A DNA stretch of 64,000 bases from assembly GCA_046483795.1 (NCBI GenBank), contig JAWOCM010000091.1, positions 1-64,000 of the forward strand. Direction: 5' to 3'. This DNA comes from Desulfuromonadales bacterium. GTDB taxonomy: Bacteria > Desulfobacterota > Desulfuromonadia > Desulfuromonadales > JAWOCM01. Shown here in pieces: positions 2,926 to 64,000 of the stretch. The position numbers and the translations under genes are program-made. The stretch's first letter is position 1, and each line of letters begins with the position of its first letter. The notes under the pieces are model-generated. The model was not told where the DNA came from, made no database searches, and saw only the letters and a list, made by a program, of their open reading frames with translations.

Positions 2926-3678
2926 ATGAAACGCCTGTTTTTGACAATCCTGATCCTGGCCGCTTTCACCGGCACAGCCGTCGCAGACAACGACATCGAT
3001 TTCGGCGGCAATGTTGATCTTATCAACCAGAACTTCGGCGATATCGTTCGCGAAGCGGGCATCATCACCGCCTACCGCGGGATCGCCCCGGCCGAACCGC
3101 TCGGTATTCTCGGTTTCGATATCGGCGTGGAGTCCAGCTTCGTCGACATCGAAACCTCGACCTGGGAACCGGTCATCGATGCCGGCACGTCCGATCCGCC
3201 GAGCGTCCTGCCGATTCCGCGAATCCACGTGCGCAAGGGCCTGCCATTTAATGTCGATGTCGGTGCCAGCTACGCCTCTGTGCCCGACTCGAACATCGAG
3301 ATCCTGGGTGGCGAAGTGCAATGGGCGCTGCTCGAAGGCACCATGGCCACGCCGGCCCTTTCGATGCGCGGCCATTACAGCACCCTGGAGGGTGTCGACG
3401 ATCTCGATGTCGAGACCTACGGCGTGGATGCGCTGGTCAGCAAGGGGTTTACCATGCTCACCCCCTATGCCGGCGTCGGCATCCTGGAGATCGACGGCAA
3501 ATACACCGGGGATGAGCTAGACTTTCTCTCAGGCTCGTTCAAGCTGGAAGACCAGTCGAAAACGGAAACGCGCTATTTCGGCGGCATGCAGATCTCCCTG
3601 GCTATGCTGGCCCTGACCGTGGAAGCCGAATATTCGGACATCCCTGTTTACTCTGCCAAGCTCAGCTTCAACTGGTAG
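2926..3678 (+). CDS. Outer-membrane beta-barrel protein, function unknown
   Basis: Track ORF 2887..3678. ATG 2926 is preceded by GGAGG. It has a signal peptide (MKRLFLTILILAAFTGTAVA), alternating beta-strand patterns and a C-terminal aromatic residue (LSFNW). Confidence 0.6.
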   Translation: MKRLFLTILILAAFTGTAVADNDIDFGGNVDLINQNFGDIVREAGIITAYRGIAPAEPLGILGFDIGVESSFVDIETSTWEPVIDAGTSDPPSVLPIPRIHVRKGLPFNVDVGASYASVPDSNIEILGGEVQWALLEGTMATPALSMRGHYSTLEGVDDLDVETYGVDALVSKGFTMLTPYAGVGILEIDGKYTGDELDFLSGSFKLEDQSKTETRYFGGMQISLAMLALTVEAEYSDIPVYSAKLSFNW

Positions 3679-3720
3679 GTGCAAACCAATTATTGATGGT
3701 TCTCGTCAAAACTCTGTGAA

Positions 3721-3847
3721 TGGCTAAGCAAAAATTTCGTCCCACAAGGCAGTGGTGGTTTTTCAGGGGCGAAGGCATACATCAGGTATGTCGATGTCCT
3801 GAAAAAACGCCGTAACGCCGTGGGGCGGACTTTTTGCGACGCCATCA
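3721..3847 (+). repeat. Hairpin MITE-like element, family A, copy 1
   Basis: About 93% identical to 9500..9625 by hand alignment. About 47-nt imperfect terminal inverted repeats (TGGCTAAGCAAAAATTTCG... versus the reverse complement of ...GGACTTTTTGCGACGCCA) surround a central CATAC-N5-GTATG stem. Confidence 0.85.
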
Positions 3848-5368
3848 TCTGTCGATCTTTTCAGGTCCCTTCACGATCGCCCGGCCCGATGCCTGGCCGA
3901 TGCCCCGCAGCATGCCGTTGAAAATGAAATAATGAAAGGGGTAGACCGCTCCCCAGTAAAGAAGCCCCGCAAGGCCCCGCGGCCAGAAACGTCCCCGCTG
4001 GCGCAGCTCGACGGTTCGGTCCTCGTTCTCGCGAAGGGTCAGCTCCAGTGTCGCCTGACCGGGCAGCTTCATCTCGGCGACCAGCAGCAGCCGGTAAGGC
4101 TTGTCGACTGCAGCGACGCGCCAGAAATCGAGAGCGTCGCCGGTATGCAGATCCCGGTCGTGACGCCGGCCGCGACCGAGTCCGACGCCGCCGAAAACCC
4201 GGTCCAGAACGCCGCGAAGCTTCCACAGCCAGTTGGCGTAGTACCAGCCGGTGCGTCCTCCGATGGCGAGGATGGCAGGCCAGATCTCTTCAGCGGTACC
4301 GCTCAACACCGCCCGGCGATGGTCATCGAACACCTTGCCGCCGGCCCAGGGCGGATCTTCGGCCGTGTCCCATTCGACCAGGGTACCGGCATCGGTCCAG
4401 CGGCTTTCCACCTGCTGCTGACGGATCCGGTCGAGCGCAAGACGGATCGTCATGCGGCAGTCGAGCAGGTGTTGCGGTACCAGTTCGCGGATCCGCGTAT
4501 CGCGGCAGACGACAGGATTGCGCAGCCCCTCGGCGAGGGGGCGGGCCAGGGCGGCCGGTACCGGCGTCACCAGGTGAATCCAGTAGGAACTCAGCCGAGG
4601 CGTCAGCACCGGCACCGGGATGATCAGGCGACGGCGCAGTCCGGCCTCCTCTGCATATATCTGCATGAGCTTGCGGTAGGTGATAACCTCTTTTTGACCG
4701 ATATCGAACGTCCCGCCTGCGGTTTCGGGTTTATCGAGACAACCGACCAGGTAGCCCAGCACGTTGCGGATGCCGATCGGCTGGCAGGGGGTATCGACCC
4801 ATCGCGGGGTGATCATCACCGGCAGGCGATCCACCAGGTATCGCAGGATCTCAAAAGAAGCGCTTCCCGAACCGATAATCATCGCCGCCCGCAATACGGT
4901 GACCGGGACCTCTCCGCTAGCCAGGAGCCGGGCCACCTCAAGGCGCGATTTCAGGTGATGGCTGAGCTCCTCGCCCTCCTCCCCCAGCCCGCCAAGATAG
5001 ACGATCCGCTCCATCTGGGCCGACTCGGCAGCCGCCGCCATGTTCCGGGCCGCTTCTGCGTCGGTATCGGCAAAATCCTTGACGCCGGGGTGCATTGAAT
5101 GCACCAGGTAATAGACCGCAAAACAGCCACTGCAGGCCTGCTCGAGTGAGGATGGATCGAAGAGATCGCCGGCGACGATCTCGACATGCGGATGATCGGA
5201 CCAGGAACGGGACTGCAGCTTGGCCGGTGTGCGCGCCATCGCGCGAACGCTGTAGCCCGCCTCGAGCAGACGCGGCACCAGTCGTCCGCCGACATAACCG
5301 CTCGCCCCTGTCACCAGAACAGGTGCTTTCTTCTTTCCTTCATTTCCGCCGGTTTTCTCTGTTTCCAT
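3845..5368 (-). CDS. SDR/NmrA-type NAD(P)-binding protein with C-terminal DUF2867-like domain
   Basis: Track ORF 3845..5398. ATG 5368 (METEK...) has an AAGGGAGAG Shine-Dalgarno sequence. It carries a Rossmann motif (VLVTGASGYVGGRLV). The C-terminal half (WYYANWLWKLRGVLDRVFGGVGLGRGRR) resembles DUF2867. Confidence 0.75.
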   Translation of the reverse strand: METEKTGGNEGKKKAPVLVTGASGYVGGRLVPRLLEAGYSVRAMARTPAKLQSRSWSDHPHVEIVAGDLFDPSSLEQACSGCFAVYYLVHSMHPGVKDFADTDAEAARNMAAAAESAQMERIVYLGGLGEEGEELSHHLKSRLEVARLLASGEVPVTVLRAAMIIGSGSASFEILRYLVDRLPVMITPRWVDTPCQPIGIRNVLGYLVGCLDKPETAGGTFDIGQKEVITYRKLMQIYAEEAGLRRRLIIPVPVLTPRLSSYWIHLVTPVPAALARPLAEGLRNPVVCRDTRIRELVPQHLLDCRMTIRLALDRIRQQQVESRWTDAGTLVEWDTAEDPPWAGGKVFDDHRRAVLSGTAEEIWPAILAIGGRTGWYYANWLWKLRGVLDRVFGGVGLGRGRRHDRDLHTGDALDFWRVAAVDKPYRLLLVAEMKLPGQATLELTLRENEDRTVELRQRGRFWPRGLAGLLYWGAVYPFHYFIFNGMLRGIGQASGRAIVKGPEKIDR

Positions 5369-5444
5369 TCCACTCTCCCTTGTTTTCAGCGGTGCCATGC
5401 GCTAACTTTATGGCCGGATCATCATCGAAACAGGATCATCGCAA

Positions 5445-6332
5445 ATGAACCAGTCCAGACATATCAAACTCATCGCCAATCCCGTTTCCGGGGGTAATGC
5501 CCTCAGGAGAATCTATCACATCCGCCAGCTTATGGAAGAGCGCGGCACGTGCGTCGACCTCTTTTTGACGGAAGCCCCCGGCGATGCCGAGAAAGCTGCG
5601 GGCGCCGCCCGTTCGGAAGGGTTCGATCGGATCATAGCCGCCGGCGGCGACGGAACCCTCAACGAGGTCGTCAACGGCATGGCTCCCTGCGAGATTCCCC
5701 TCGCCTTCATCCCGCTGGGCACCACCAACGTCTTCGCGCTGGAAGCCGGCATCCCCTTCGACCTCGAGCGCGCCTTCGACATCGCTCTGCAGGGCGAAGC
5801 ACGACCGGTCTGTCTCGGCCGCGCGGCGGATCGGCTTTTCCTTCTCATGGCCGGCGTCGGCTTCGACGCCGAAGTGGTGCGAAGCGTCAGTCCGGCGCTT
5901 AAAAGGCGCGTCGGCAAGGGCGCCTACCTCTGGAGTGGCCTCAAGGTTTTTGCAGCGTCGACCACCAGTCCCATCCAGATCGAACTTCCCGACGGTGAGA
6001 CGCACACTGGCTACAGTGCCATTGTCGGAAACGGTCGCTATTATGCCGGTCGCTTCTCCCTGACCCCCGGAGCCTCCCTGTTCGACGACGGTTTCGAAGT
6101 CTTCCTGCTTCGCCGCCCCGGTCGCCTCAACCTGCTGCGCATGATCTGGTCCATGCTTCTGCGACGCCGACCGCCCGAGTCGCTTGCTTTGACCTTGAAC
6201 ACCAGGCACCTGAGAATCAGCGGGGACGACCTTCCGGTGCAGCTGGACGGCGACCCCTTCACCACCCTGCCGGTCGATTTTTCCGCCGAATTCGGGAAAA
6301 TCGCCATGGTCTTTCCGAGGAGCGAGCCGTGA
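5445..6332 (+). CDS. YegS/BmrU family lipid (diacylglycerol-type) kinase
   Basis: 295 aa with the DAGK catalytic-domain motif IIAAGGDGTLNEVVNG. The stop overlaps the next start (GTGA). Confidence 0.85.
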   Translation: MNQSRHIKLIANPVSGGNALRRIYHIRQLMEERGTCVDLFLTEAPGDAEKAAGAARSEGFDRIIAAGGDGTLNEVVNGMAPCEIPLAFIPLGTTNVFALEAGIPFDLERAFDIALQGEARPVCLGRAADRLFLLMAGVGFDAEVVRSVSPALKRRVGKGAYLWSGLKVFAASTTSPIQIELPDGETHTGYSAIVGNGRYYAGRFSLTPGASLFDDGFEVFLLRRPGRLNLLRMIWSMLLRRRPPESLALTLNTRHLRISGDDLPVQLDGDPFTTLPVDFSAEFGKIAMVFPRSEP

Positions 6333-9451: not shown

Positions 9452-9499
9452 GAAACGCAATGAGCTAATCTGTGATGCTCTTCGCAAAAGCCCGGTGGA

Positions 9500-9625
9500 T
9501 GGCTAAGCAAAAATTTCGCCCTGCAAGGCCTGGTGGTTTTCCAGGGGCGAAGGCATACATCAGGTATGTCGAGGTCCTGAAAAAACGCCGTAACGCCGCA
9601 GGGCGGACTTTTTGCGACGCCATCA
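9500..9625 (+). repeat. Hairpin MITE-like element, family A, copy 2
   Basis: Second copy of the 3721..3847 element in the same orientation. An extra TGCTCTTCGCAAAAG terminus-like word lies just upstream at 9476..9490. Confidence 0.85.
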
Positions 9626-10012
9626 ATCGGTGGTCACTTCGAACTCGGGGGAATCGAGAATCGAGCGCTTGACCGCACACTGGTCTGTGGCCCGGATAAT
9701 CGCCTTCTTGTACTTCTCCGGAAATCCCGTCGGAAGAGTGATCCGCATTGCGACCCTGGAAGGCAGCCGCGTTTCCGGATCCCGCTCCATATCCACCGAC
9801 AGTTTCAGACCCTCGGTCTCGAGCTCGCGCTGATGGCAGAAGCGGAGAGCGAAAAATCCGGCGCAGGTCCCCATAGAGGCCAGGTAGAGATCGAACGGCG
9901 AAGGGGCGCTTCCTTCGCCGCCGTTTTCCTTCGGCTGATCGGTGCGAATGGTAAACCCGTCGACGCGGGCTTCGACAGCAACGCCGCCGGGAAAAGTGAT
10001 GTCCATAGACAT
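9623..10012 (-). CDS. OsmC family peroxiredoxin-like protein
   Basis: Track ORF 9623..10036. ATG 10012 has an AAGGAGA Shine-Dalgarno sequence at 5-nt spacing. OsmC signature: GSAPSPFDLYLASMGTCAG ... ATDQCAVKRSI. Confidence 0.85.
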   Translation of the reverse strand: MSMDITFPGGVAVEARVDGFTIRTDQPKENGGEGSAPSPFDLYLASMGTCAGFFALRFCHQRELETEGLKLSVDMERDPETRLPSRVAMRITLPTGFPEKYKKAIIRATDQCAVKRSILDSPEFEVTTD

Positions 10013-10055
10013 GAGAATCTCCTTTGTGTTTTGCAATAGAGTGAAACCTGAATAC

Positions 10056-10133
10056 GTGAGGGGTGAGGCGTGAGGAGAATAAGCTCAGAGCCTTGGTTTG
10101 CCCCGGGAATTCCCCTCACGCCTCAGCCCTCAC
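10056..10133. repeat. Hairpin built from GTGAGG heptamer words (family D)
   Basis: The left arm GTGAGGGGTGAGGCGTGAGGAG (10056..10077) matches the reverse complement of CCCCTCACGCCTCAGCCCTCAC (10112..10133) at 20 of 22 positions. The loop is about 34 nt. It lies between the pcrA stop and the osmC-family start. Confidence 0.7.
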
Positions 10134-10199: not shown

Positions 10200-12245
<2,046 letters not shown>

Positions 12246-12334: not shown

Positions 12335-12627
12335 CTGATCATATACCTGTTGCCGGCGGAGAAAAAGGCTTGATTTTATAATCCTGAACTTGCTATTTTA
12401 ACCGCCATGTTCCGATTAACTGTTGTCATAGTAGGTGTGGTGTGGGCGTCGTTGCTGCTTTTTTCCTGGAGCGGAGCTGTTGTTTCACCTCCGGCTCAGG
12501 AAAAAAGCAGCGCCGTTGATCGCCCACTGGCTCGCTAAGCTTTTCTGGAACCATACCGCCATGGTTCTCCCACGGATCCTCCCGAATCCCGACGTATGGG
12601 GCAAAATATCCTTTGATCCGCGTCTCT

Positions 12628-20709: not shown

Positions 20710-20714
20710 AAACG

Positions 20715-20844
20715 ATGCCTTCGCAAAAAGTCATCTTTTACCACCAAGGCACCAAGGGCACCAAGAAAACATCACTAAGATTCAATGGGTTACCTTTGTG
20801 TCTTGGTGTCTTGGTGGTGGATTTTCGGTTTTTTGCGAGACCAT
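20715..20844 (-). repeat. Hairpin MITE-like element, family B (CACCAAGG words), full copy
   Basis: The reverse complement aligns end to end with 63560..63685 (ATGG.CTCGCAAAAAA.CC..AATCCACCACCAAGACACCAAG.CACAAAG ... TTCTTGGTGCCCTTGGTGCCTT.GTGGT ... TTTTT.CGA). It fills the gap between the GH13 stop and the glgA start. Confidence 0.85.
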
Positions 20845-20860
20845 CATGGAGCGGCAGTCG

Positions 20861-32425: not shown

Positions 32426-32579
32426 ACTTATAACCCAAAAGAAGGTCGTCTCAACGCAAAGACGCAAAGATTGAAAACATGACGCAAAGAAAGGCACGAA
32501 GGGCATCCTCTTTCCCCTTTGCGTCTTTCAGTTTTCTTGGCGTCTTAGCGCTAAAGCCTTTGTTTTGGTTATAGGCCCG
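32426..32579 (+). mobile_element. Hairpin MITE-like element, family C (ACGCAAAG words), full copy
   Basis: Terminal inverted repeats are ACTTATAACCCAAAAGAAGG and the reverse complement of CCTTTGTTTTGGTTATAGGCCCG. The arms of about 70 nt are made of ACGCAAAG/CTTTGCGT words. It is flanked by the imperfect direct repeat TTTTAATTCAG (32415..32425) / TTTTAATTTCAG (32580..32591). Confidence 0.75.
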
Positions 32580-32600
32580 TTTTAATTTCAGTCAATCAAA

Positions 32601-32647
32601 TTGGCATCGAAAAAAGTCATTTTCGACACCAAGACACCAAGAAGAAC
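32601..32647 (-). repeat. Half copy of family B element directly upstream of elbB
   Basis: TTGGCATCGAAAAAAGTCATTTTCGACACCAAGACACCAAGAAGAAC aligns with the left half of 20715..20844. It ends at the elbB ribosome binding site (AGGAAGGAGG). Confidence 0.7.
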
Positions 32648-63487: not shown

Positions 63488-63559
63488 TTCGAATACTCCC
63501 TCTCTTTGCAGACAGCCGACCGGCGTCCCCAGTAGACCATTTCGCTCGAATCAAATCTT

Positions 63560-63685
63560 ATGGCCTCGCAAAAAAAACCACAATCCACCACCAAGACACC
63601 AAGGCACAAAGAAAACCCATTGATTTTTTTAATACTTTCTTGGTGCCCTTGGTGCCTTAGTGGTGACAAATGATTTTTCGAGAAT
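63560..63685 (+). mobile_element. Hairpin MITE-like element, family B, full copy with 12-bp flanking direct repeat
   Basis: 126 bp, ATGGCCTCGCAAAAAAAACC...GATTTTTCGAGAAT. The arms are made of CACCAAG / CTTGGTG words. A perfect direct repeat GAATCAAATCTT flanks it at 63548..63559 and 63686..63697; the second copy contains the proB stop codon. Confidence 0.85.
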
Positions 63686-63688
63686 GAA

Positions 63689-64000
63689 TCAAATCTTGTT
63701 CTTCAGCACCATATTGTCGCGATGCACCACCTCATCGCCGTACTTGTATCCGAGCAGCCCTTCGATCTCGGTCGAGTTGCGCCCCATGATTTTCATCATT
63801 TCAGTCAAATCGTAACCGATGACCCCTTTGGCGATCTCGACGCCGGCCAGCGAACACAACCGCACGGCATCACCGCGCTGAAAAACGCCCTCGATTTTTT
63901 TCACCCCTGAGGGCAAAAGGCTTTTTCCGCCGTCGAGCAGGGCCTGACAGGCGCCGTCATCGAGAAACAGAACCCCCTTGGGCCTGGTGAATGAAATCCA
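63689..64000 (-). CDS. proB: Glutamate 5-kinase ProB (C-terminal PUA part only; 5' end beyond the window)
   Basis: The frame is open to the window end. The C-terminal PUA-domain sequence is ...GVKKIEGVFQRGDAVRLCSLAGVEIAKGVIGYDLTEMMKIMGRNSTEIEGLLGYKYGDEVVHRDNMVLKNKI. Confidence 0.85.
   Translation of the reverse strand, partial: WISFTRPKGVLFLDDGACQALLDGGKSLLPSGVKKIEGVFQRGDAVRLCSLAGVEIAKGVIGYDLTEMMKIMGRNSTEIEGLLGYKYGDEVVHRDNMVLKNKI

Follow-up and report, generated by a model that had tools for sequence, protein, structure and literature searches.

Two long hairpins in a Desulfuromonadales contig are probably copies of a miniature transposable element whose stem is kept by compensatory changes

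We describe a family of hairpin-forming repeats, here called Family A, that has two copies in a 64,000-nucleotide stretch of a Desulfuromonadales bacterium (contig JAWOCM010000091.1, positions 1 to 64,000; hereafter the window). We consider Family A to be a MITE (miniature inverted-repeat transposable element), that is, a non-autonomous DNA transposon, with a hairpin that is kept by compensatory changes, and put the probability of this reading at close to nine in ten. We take it for a MITE because it combines terminal inverted repeats (TIRs), a target-site duplication (TSD) of fixed length, many copies and empty sites.

Results

Two window copies of a 151-bp element

The first-pass annotation of the window had singled out 3721-3847 and 9500-9625 as near-identical, long, imperfect hairpins, and this holds. 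Of 127 alignment columns, 9 differ between the two stretches, one of them by a 1-nt indel, and the plus strands fold as RNA with a minimum free energy of -62.7 (copy 1) and -62.9 (copy 2) kcal/mol, against shuffle means of -36 and -39 (z = -8.4 and -6.8; 0 of 200 shuffles equal). The central CATAC-N5-GTATG stem is present, in copy 1 at 3776-3790, and the compensatory swap between the copies was also read correctly: CCCAC (3741-3745) faces GTGGG (3820-3824) in copy 1, where CCTGC (9520-9524) faces GCAGG (9598-9602) in copy 2, so that two adjacent pairs are each altered on both sides. The ATGGCTAAG open reading frame (ORF) shifts frame between the two copies, and the element is non-coding. The annotation had named unpaired arm substitutions, or energies like those of shuffles, as results that would speak against its hairpin; both checks left the hairpin standing.

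Two things in that annotation had to be amended. The hairpin part does run rightward from 3721, but the element itself starts 26 nt further left, with direct-repeat search, flank profiles and alignment placing the full copies at 3695-3846 and 9474-9624. Furthermore, the real, non-coding hairpin was described without its transposon origin, which is apparent from the TIRs, the 6-bp TSD and a filled/empty polymorphism. A profile search of the window (nhmmer) returns only these two Family A copies, whose parts are as follows.

3695-3846, plus strand: probable Family A MITE copy 1, 152 bp, GATGG...GCCATC, between convergent genes (aligned with 107 others; nhmmer E = 1.7e-46)
9474-9624, plus strand: probable Family A MITE copy 2, 151 bp, GATGC...GCCATC, between convergent DUF4911 and OsmC genes (nhmmer E = 2.5e-48)
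3721-3844, plus strand: long imperfect hairpin of copy 1 (energy and z as above)
3695-3713, plus strand: outer left TIR (L1) of copy 1, degenerate, GATGGTTCTCGTCAAAACT against the consensus GATGSNNTCGCAAAAAGTC (flank conservation profile, alignment)
3718-3739, plus strand: L2, an internal third terminal motif with consensus GATGGCTAAGCAAAAATTTCG, forming the base of the hairpin 5' arm and paired with the right end
3741-3745, plus strand: left-arm CCCAC, partner of GTGGG at 3820-3824 (family states UA/CG and AU/GC/GU at pairs 66-156 and 67-155)
3828-3846, minus strand: right TIR (R) of copy 1, reading GATGGCGTCGCAAAAAGTC
9606-9624, minus strand: right TIR of copy 2, reading GATGGCGTCGCAAAAAGTC

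A large family in Desulfuromonadales

Further copies were collected in one scan of species-representative genomes, using a pattern that fixed 12 bases per arm (24 in total) and left the interior free. The scan listed at least 120 contig stretches with at least 121 copies in at least 44 metagenome-assembled genomes (MAGs); family counts below refer to copies listed, and numbers such as L017 or L118 are the labels of contig stretches in this analysis. Carrier MAGs are almost all labelled as Desulfuromonadales (Desulfuromonas, Desulfuromusa, Pelobacter, Geopsychrobacter, Trichloromonas, Geobacteraceae and the like), with at least 21 copies in one MAG and at least 10 in another. Element copies are common at contig ends, and a Logan contig of the source organism breaks off inside copy 1.

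The unit is about 151 bp long (150-152 bp) and has sharp conservation edges: on the left it opens with GATG, 32 nt ahead of the fixed block, and on the right it closes with CATC, 9 nt past the fixed block there. Its parts follow in the order L1 (GATGSNNTCGCAAAAAGTC), a 6-7 nt spacer, the degenerate L2 (GATGGCTAAGCAAAAATTTCG), a foldback body and R (the reverse complement of GATGGCGTCGCAAAAAGTC). The 19-nt TIRs place GATGSNNTCGCAAAAAGTC at both ends. L1 and R are the best-matched pair and the true termini, while the hairpin is formed by L2 pairing with R. Inverted terminal pairs spaced 150-159 nt apart number 75 in the collected loci. A 127-bp short form was rejected as a separate element, since the copies that seemed to lack L1 have a degenerate or truncated L1 and their inner boundary carries no duplication.

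Five contig stretches with the element come from MAGs assigned to other phyla, namely L016, L091, L096 and L118 (JADFVC, 'Chloroflexota') and L042 (JAGHDB, 'Bacteroidales'). Because the 'Chloroflexota' stretch L118 is about 95% identical to the Desulfuromonadaceae contig L017, these cases probably reflect binning errors rather than horizontal transfer.

Target-site duplications and empty sites

The flanks of the family carry the mark of insertion. At each of the six positions adjoining the ends, left and right flanks agree in 68-78% of cases, with a profile that peaks at exactly six, and a perfect 6-bp direct repeat surrounds 36 of the 72 full-length copies listed. The consensus target is AT-rich, A-W-N-N-W-T. 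Duplications of 8 or 9 bp were considered and rejected, as the conserved TC of the right end has no mirror in the left flank.

The clearest evidence of movement comes from L017 and L118, which are syntenic and show two reciprocal filled and empty sites. At the first, a copy lies between AAGCAT repeats in L017, and L118 shows the empty site with one AAGCAT; at the second, about 190 bp away, L118 has a copy between AATTTT repeats and L017 a single AATTTT. The empty targets themselves, TGATGACCATC followed by AAGCAT (L017 about 6040-6058, and L118) and CTTCGCA followed by AATTTT, resemble parts of the element's own termini (CCATC, TCGCAAA), which hints at insertion beside end-like sequences.

The flanks of the window copies match less well.

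3689-3694, no strand: left flank 6-mer of copy 1, ATTATT; right 6-mer ATCTGT at 3847-3852, match 3/6
9468-9473, no strand: left flank 6-mer of copy 2, ATCTGT; right 6-mer AATCGG at 9625-9630; with a 1-nt shift, AATCTG against AATCGG, 5/6

The TSD of copy 1 thus appears, from its flanks, to have decayed. The 6-mer to the right of copy 1 is also the 6-mer to the left of copy 2, and in both copies the own flanks are unmatched; the shared ATCTGT may be coincidence (a chance of roughly 2% with this target bias), or stem from recombination between the copies or from integration of a one-copy circle. Copy 2 has orthologues at the same site in three contigs (L121-L123), where the OsmC protein is 91% identical, and the element is not at the OsmC site in homologues of 73% identity, including that of Geopsychrobacter electrodiphilus. 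Copy 2 is an old insertion.

The hairpin covaries across the family

Pairing statistics were taken from an alignment of 109 distinct copies. The consensus structure has 49 pairs, and 94.6% of pair cells are paired. Changes on both sides occur at 21 of the 49 pairs (168 cells), to which the 24 pattern-fixed bases contribute no covariation information. When the partner is slid by 1-3 columns, 42-46% of cells are paired and the covariation score falls from 0.125 to 0.02-0.06. Of 500 column shuffles, 0 attain any of five measures, counts that are not probabilities since the copies are related. Some pairs illustrate the pattern.

Pair 78-145: AU in 55 copies, GC in 51
Pair 108-121: AU in 89, CG in 18
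Pair 90-132: GC in 96, AU in 12
Pair 95-127: CG in 60, UA in 23, UG in 23 (UG 23 against CA 1)

These states are dispersed over many genomes and in several combinations; by genome, pair 78-145 is GC in 24 and AT in 21.

Two features of the variation bear on its cause. First, where at least 3 copies share a departure from the consensus pair, the cells are mostly paired (233 against 65 unpaired), whereas private departures, seen in 1-2 copies, are mostly not (33 paired against 79 unpaired). Second, the fold is strand-specific. Sporadic G.U and A.C cells are about equally frequent, and G.U as a majority state or frequent intermediate is confined to the plus strand; at pairs 80-143, 92-130 and 106-123 it is the state of 89-103 of the 109 copies. 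Asymmetric AA and AAC bulges are conserved as well, and the plus strand folds better than the minus strand in 107 of 109 copies with RNA parameters (-61.4 vs -46.8 kcal/mol) and in 106 of 109 with DNA parameters. Because shared variants pair, private ones break pairs and G.U is one-stranded, we infer that selection acts on the lineages that found new copies, favouring a plus-strand single-stranded fold (RNA or single-stranded DNA), and that copies then decay neutrally.

The first-pass annotation had left two possibilities, a selected hairpin or an arm copied from its partner. Covariation is indeed family-wide, and the shared/private split and one-strand G.U states favour selection, with one orthologue fitting the copying model. 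In that model the compensatory changes are mechanical and need no selection: intrastrand template switching in a quasi-palindrome, a mechanism documented for hairpins (PMC8794818), copies one arm onto the other. The copy 2 orthologues in L122 (944-1016) and L123 (450-600) look like its product, having CGAAATTTTTGC in the right arm instead of CGGACTTTTTGC, a two-base change that gives a perfect complement of the left arm. Compatible with it, too, are 12 private pair states that are altered on both sides with pairing kept, and three stubs in which the stem was lost as a unit.

L038, 1696-1733: 38-bp stub
L071, 2281-2318: 38-bp stub
L023, minus strand, start about 6249: 38-bp stub

Each stub consists of L1, the first L2 bases, the last R bases and a perfect 6-bp duplication, so that exactly the stem is missing; judged from these remnants, this indicates that the hairpin can form as DNA in vivo and be deleted by a hairpin-mediated event. 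Frequent arm correction, however, would erase the one-strand G.T/G.U mispairs that the three pairs named above have kept, and would not leave the conserved asymmetric bulges uncorrected. The persistence of both features argues against template switching as the main cause of the covariation, and alone it gives no account of why shared variants pair and private ones do not. We therefore hold a purely mechanical origin to be unlikely, if still to be taken seriously.

Insertion on stop codons

Both termini complete a TGA stop codon with a base of the duplication (T+GA at the left end, TC+A at the right), so that insertion on a stop codon leaves protein length unchanged. In 32 of the 122 copies listed, an opposite-strand ORF of at least 80 codons stops exactly at the right-end TGA, against 12 copies for the two remaining frames together; the corresponding figure for the left end is 9 of 73 copies. 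Among 16 readable left flanks, 12 have an orphaned original stop (TCA/TTA) just beyond the duplication, and therefore insertion took place on the stop codon itself. Seven sampled ORFs are intact ordinary genes, among them those for an EPSP synthase, a PilB-type ATPase and a GGDEF regulator. Both window copies sit on stop codons, with protein lengths that agree with those of homologues.

3845-3847, minus strand: TGA stop of the SDR/DUF2867 gene (3845-5398), made of element TC and flank A; Pfam match to residue 496 of 517, homologues 498-511 aa
9623-9625, minus strand: TGA stop of the OsmC gene (9623-10036), made of element TC and flank A; last residue of the protein the same as in homologues lacking the element

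Observations that weigh against a plain MITE

Several results fit poorly with Family A as we read it, or limit the evidence for it. One is the stop-codon association: target-motif availability in permitted places predicts 1.6% (A-W-N-N-W-T, either end) or 3.9% (T-Y-extended motif, right end), so that insertions exactly on stop codons are in roughly 7- to 20-fold excess, a large excess over an expectation that rests on crude gene calls. Orientation is biased too, in data where replication and transcription are confounded. Between co-directional genes, the element's minus strand is the sense strand in 35 cases and its plus strand in 14, and among 65 loci with significant GC skew the plus strand has negative skew in 49 (49 vs 16), as it does in the window. 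Divergence is slow, with 10 differences in 152 positions (6.6%) between window copy 2 and an orthologous copy, compared with 24 of 130 third codon positions (18.5%) in the adjacent gene. The family-wide strand asymmetry of the fold is unexpected for a plain cut-and-paste MITE. The window, 805 kb of loci and viral contigs yielded no autonomous insertion sequence bearing these termini. The scan pattern missed copies with other arm bases, for example L122 and L123, and the relatedness of the copies bears on the shuffle counts as said above.

The slow divergence recurs in a second same-site pair, in which the elements are 85% identical and the flanks about 70%. Constraint, gene conversion among copies or repeated hot-spot insertion could each explain it.

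One way to accommodate several of these points is a structured RNA module at the 3' ends of host genes (for instance a bidirectional terminator, a stabiliser of the mRNA or a target of RNase III) under locus-level RNA selection, with mobility accounting only for its arrival. Such a module would explain G.U intermediates in the covariation, conserved unpaired AA and AAC bulges, the low divergence of the orthologous copy, the orientation bias relative to genes, and the start of 32 of 122 copies listed precisely on a stop codon; A5 and U5 tracts moreover flank the long stem at its base, giving an A-tract/GC-rich stem/U-tract symmetry. Selection at each locus, however, is at odds with private variants that break pairs as neutral decay predicts (79 unpaired vs 33 paired cells) and with 24 copies that lie between divergent gene starts. 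The orientation in which the element is usually co-transcribed presents the weaker minus-strand fold (-46.8 vs -61.4 kcal/mol), and the rate gap, known from a single locus, could equally be gene conversion among copies. An intrinsic-terminator scan with loops of 3-8 nt, a setting that does not reach the long stem, left copy 2 unflagged and reported for copy 1 only a 5-pair junction hairpin at 3837-3854. Rfam (15) gave no match in the window at gathering score, and at 3600-3960 (E up to 10) only chance-level matches with E above 4 that lie outside the element. We regard a host RNA module as a rather improbable account of the family.

A second idea retains the transposon and holds that it is more than a passive MITE. 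This doubt arises from the stop-codon share (against 2-4% expected), the 35:14 and 49:16 orientation ratios, the 6.6% and 18.5% rates and the stubs, and takes two forms. As a stop-codon cap, the element may be preferentially fixed on, or targeted to, exactly the stop codons of intact genes in one orientation, leaving the protein unchanged and coming under purifying selection after insertion, and the hairpin may become the gene's new 3' end, as a putative terminator or stabiliser. Alternatively, the strand-specific fold may reflect an obligatory single-stranded stage in the life of a TSD-making transposon, and the orientation bias of surviving copies may come from hairpin-mediated deletion on the lagging-strand template. 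The stubs bear on this last suggestion: by GC skew, 2 of the 3 have the less frequent orientation (z = 3.5 and 4.3) and the remaining one is neutral (z = -0.2). Two less certain truncated derivatives agree (z = 3.0 and 4.0), with a sixth candidate below significance (z = 1.9). Given these very small numbers, survival bias through hairpin deletion is a lead only. We think it doubtful that either form, cap or obligatory intermediate, is correct.

Two remaining alternatives have little in their favour. A REPIN-like or IS200/IS605-type element (PATE) that a Y1/HUH transposase (RAYT or TnpA) mobilises as a single-stranded hairpin would share with Family A a long hairpin with compensatory changes, as in REPINs (PMC3116915), a strand-asymmetric fold and an orientation that correlates with GC skew. 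Yet Y1/HUH transposition does not give rise to 6-bp duplications and clean empty sites, the ends consist of true inverted repeats, not of subterminal hairpins, and are not themselves palindromic, and in place of a fixed tetra- or pentanucleotide target the duplications are variable. GC skew places the better-folding strand mostly on the leading-strand template, opposite to IS608-type elements; lagging-strand-template logic of the IS608 kind was accordingly rejected on the sign of that correlation, and this origin is very improbable. That the element encodes a small protein (MAKQKFRP...) can be dismissed, since, although the consensus has an ATG and the frame is open through the whole element in 55 of the 109 copies, 38 have an internal stop, 16 lack the ATG, indels break the frame between the window copies, no stop is conserved, and variation tracks base pairing without 3-periodicity (entropy by codon position 0.435 / 0.369 / 0.478).

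Searches for a parent element and for an earlier description

A parent carrying the Family A termini was sought by several routes. Among TIR pairs 300-5000 bp apart in the 805 kb of loci and the window, none had matching 6-mers and the only pairs were formed by separate MITEs. Solo TIR matches proved to be diverged copies, other MITE families or the 38-bp stubs. A TIR scan of viral contigs yielded further small elements bounded by TIRs, a single Family A copy and phage genes, with no transposase, and a blastn search of a plasmid collection with the consensus gave no match. In the literature, we found no paper linking Desulfuromonas with MITEs; a supplement on multicopy sequences of Pelobacter carbinolicus is without the element's motifs, and a paper on Geobacter metallireducens describes other repeat families.

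Related terminal motifs and other repeats

The terminal motif of Family A recurs in other repeats. A second hairpin family, with 'caccaagg'-type internal repeats, is present in the window at 63559-63690 and 20714-20845 and has the same terminal motif (TATGGCCTCGCAAAAA / GATGCCTTCGCAAAAAGTC). The former copy lies within a perfect 6-bp duplication, AAATCT (flanks 63553-63558 and 63691-63696). This second family is probably moved by the same transposase as Family A. After a repeat-rich stretch at 32450-32640 (cgcaaagacgcaaag ... ctttgcgtctt) comes a degenerate form of the terminal motif, TGGCATCGAAAAAAGTCA (32602-32619, minus-strand match). Viral contigs of IMG/VR contain a distinct element, about 124 bp long, bounded by the same terminal motif (GATGGCTTCGCAAAAAGTC ... 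GCAAAGCCATC; L134 4634-4757, L136 from 1817, L137 from 6235), and the viral contig L135 holds the Family A copy mentioned above.

Inverted repeats of other kinds lie near copy 2. Between the OsmC and UvrD-like genes, 10056-10133 contains a 25-nt inverted repeat (GTGAGGGGTGAGGCGTGAGGAGAAT / complement, 92%), and L126 (800-830) has a related GGTGAG-rich stretch after OsmC. A 26-nt inverted repeat with T/A runs (GCTGCTTTTTTCCTGGAGCGGAGCTG) is found at 12454-12511, just past the start of the minus-strand UvrD-like gene (10200-12245).

Discussion

The observations suggest a life cycle for Family A. A DDE-type transposase, acting in trans from an insertion sequence, would recognise L1 and R and make a 6-bp staggered cut, a step deduced solely from the duplication; the other hairpin families of the window that have the same termini and a 6-bp duplication would probably depend on the same enzyme. 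New copies would be founded by those with a foldable plus strand, as single-stranded nucleic acid, and inserted copies would then decay. Occasional template switching from arm to arm probably contributes.

The family accounts for a class of hairpins of about 150 bp that break assemblies and clutter intergenic regions in an environmentally important order of metal- and sulfur-reducing bacteria, and it provides precise boundaries, termini and a target motif for annotators. Its more than 100 copies in at least 44 genomes form a dataset on the reasons for which fold-back elements retain their stems. Worth pursuing in complete genomes are its association with stop codons, its strand asymmetry and its orientation bias. 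If the stop-codon and orientation biases hold in complete genomes, they would point to a targeting rule or a selective filter under which insertion at a gene end is costless to the protein, and would provide a natural test of hairpin instability against replication direction.

Elements of this kind are already known as MITEs, and a description of this particular family was not found in the literature. Bacterial MITEs such as Correia/NEMIS of Neisseria, ERIC, RUP and MITEAba12 are alike in being non-coding and about 100-250 bp long, in their TIRs and TSD, and in having many intergenic copies, a whole-length RNA fold-back and presence/absence polymorphism between close relatives. To our knowledge, Family A has no sequence similarity to any of them. 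Correia and RUP duplicate TA, and MITEAba12 duplicates 9 bp. Family A differs from these MITEs in its 6-bp A-W-N-N-W-T duplication, its third, internal terminal motif and its TGA-rebuilding termini.

Within the same broad bacterial group, the Chunjie MITE of Geobacter uraniireducens Rf4 (Chen et al. 2008) likewise forms very stable hairpins; according to the summary in PMC3184786, it measures 178-235 bp, is rich in A+T and combines 21-bp TIRs with 9-bp direct repeats. Identity with Chunjie was rejected on those figures, Family A having about 151 bp, 19-nt TIRs and 6-bp duplications.

Quasi-palindrome template switching (PMC8794818) produces paired arm changes in one event, as seen in one orthologous copy; it is a mutational process rather than a kind of element, and leaves the one-stranded G.U states and the bulges unexplained.

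The closest parallels in structure-preserving evolution are bcr1 and REPINs. The bcr1 element of the Bacillus cereus group is mobile, about 155 bp long and flanked by 5-bp direct repeats, with a structure that compensatory base-pair changes maintain, according to the same summary (PMC3184786). It differs in phylum and sequence, in being known to be transcribed and in having been described as a cruciform-like RNA fold rather than as an element bounded by TIRs in this way. For REPINs, the hairpin, as single-stranded DNA or RNA, has been proposed as the replicative unit, and they resemble Family A in being hairpin-forming and non-autonomous and in their compensatory stem changes (PMC3116915). REPINs differ in having no TSD, in consisting of two REP palindromes and in being tied to a Y1 transposase gene, whereas Family A combines 6-bp duplications with plain inverted termini.

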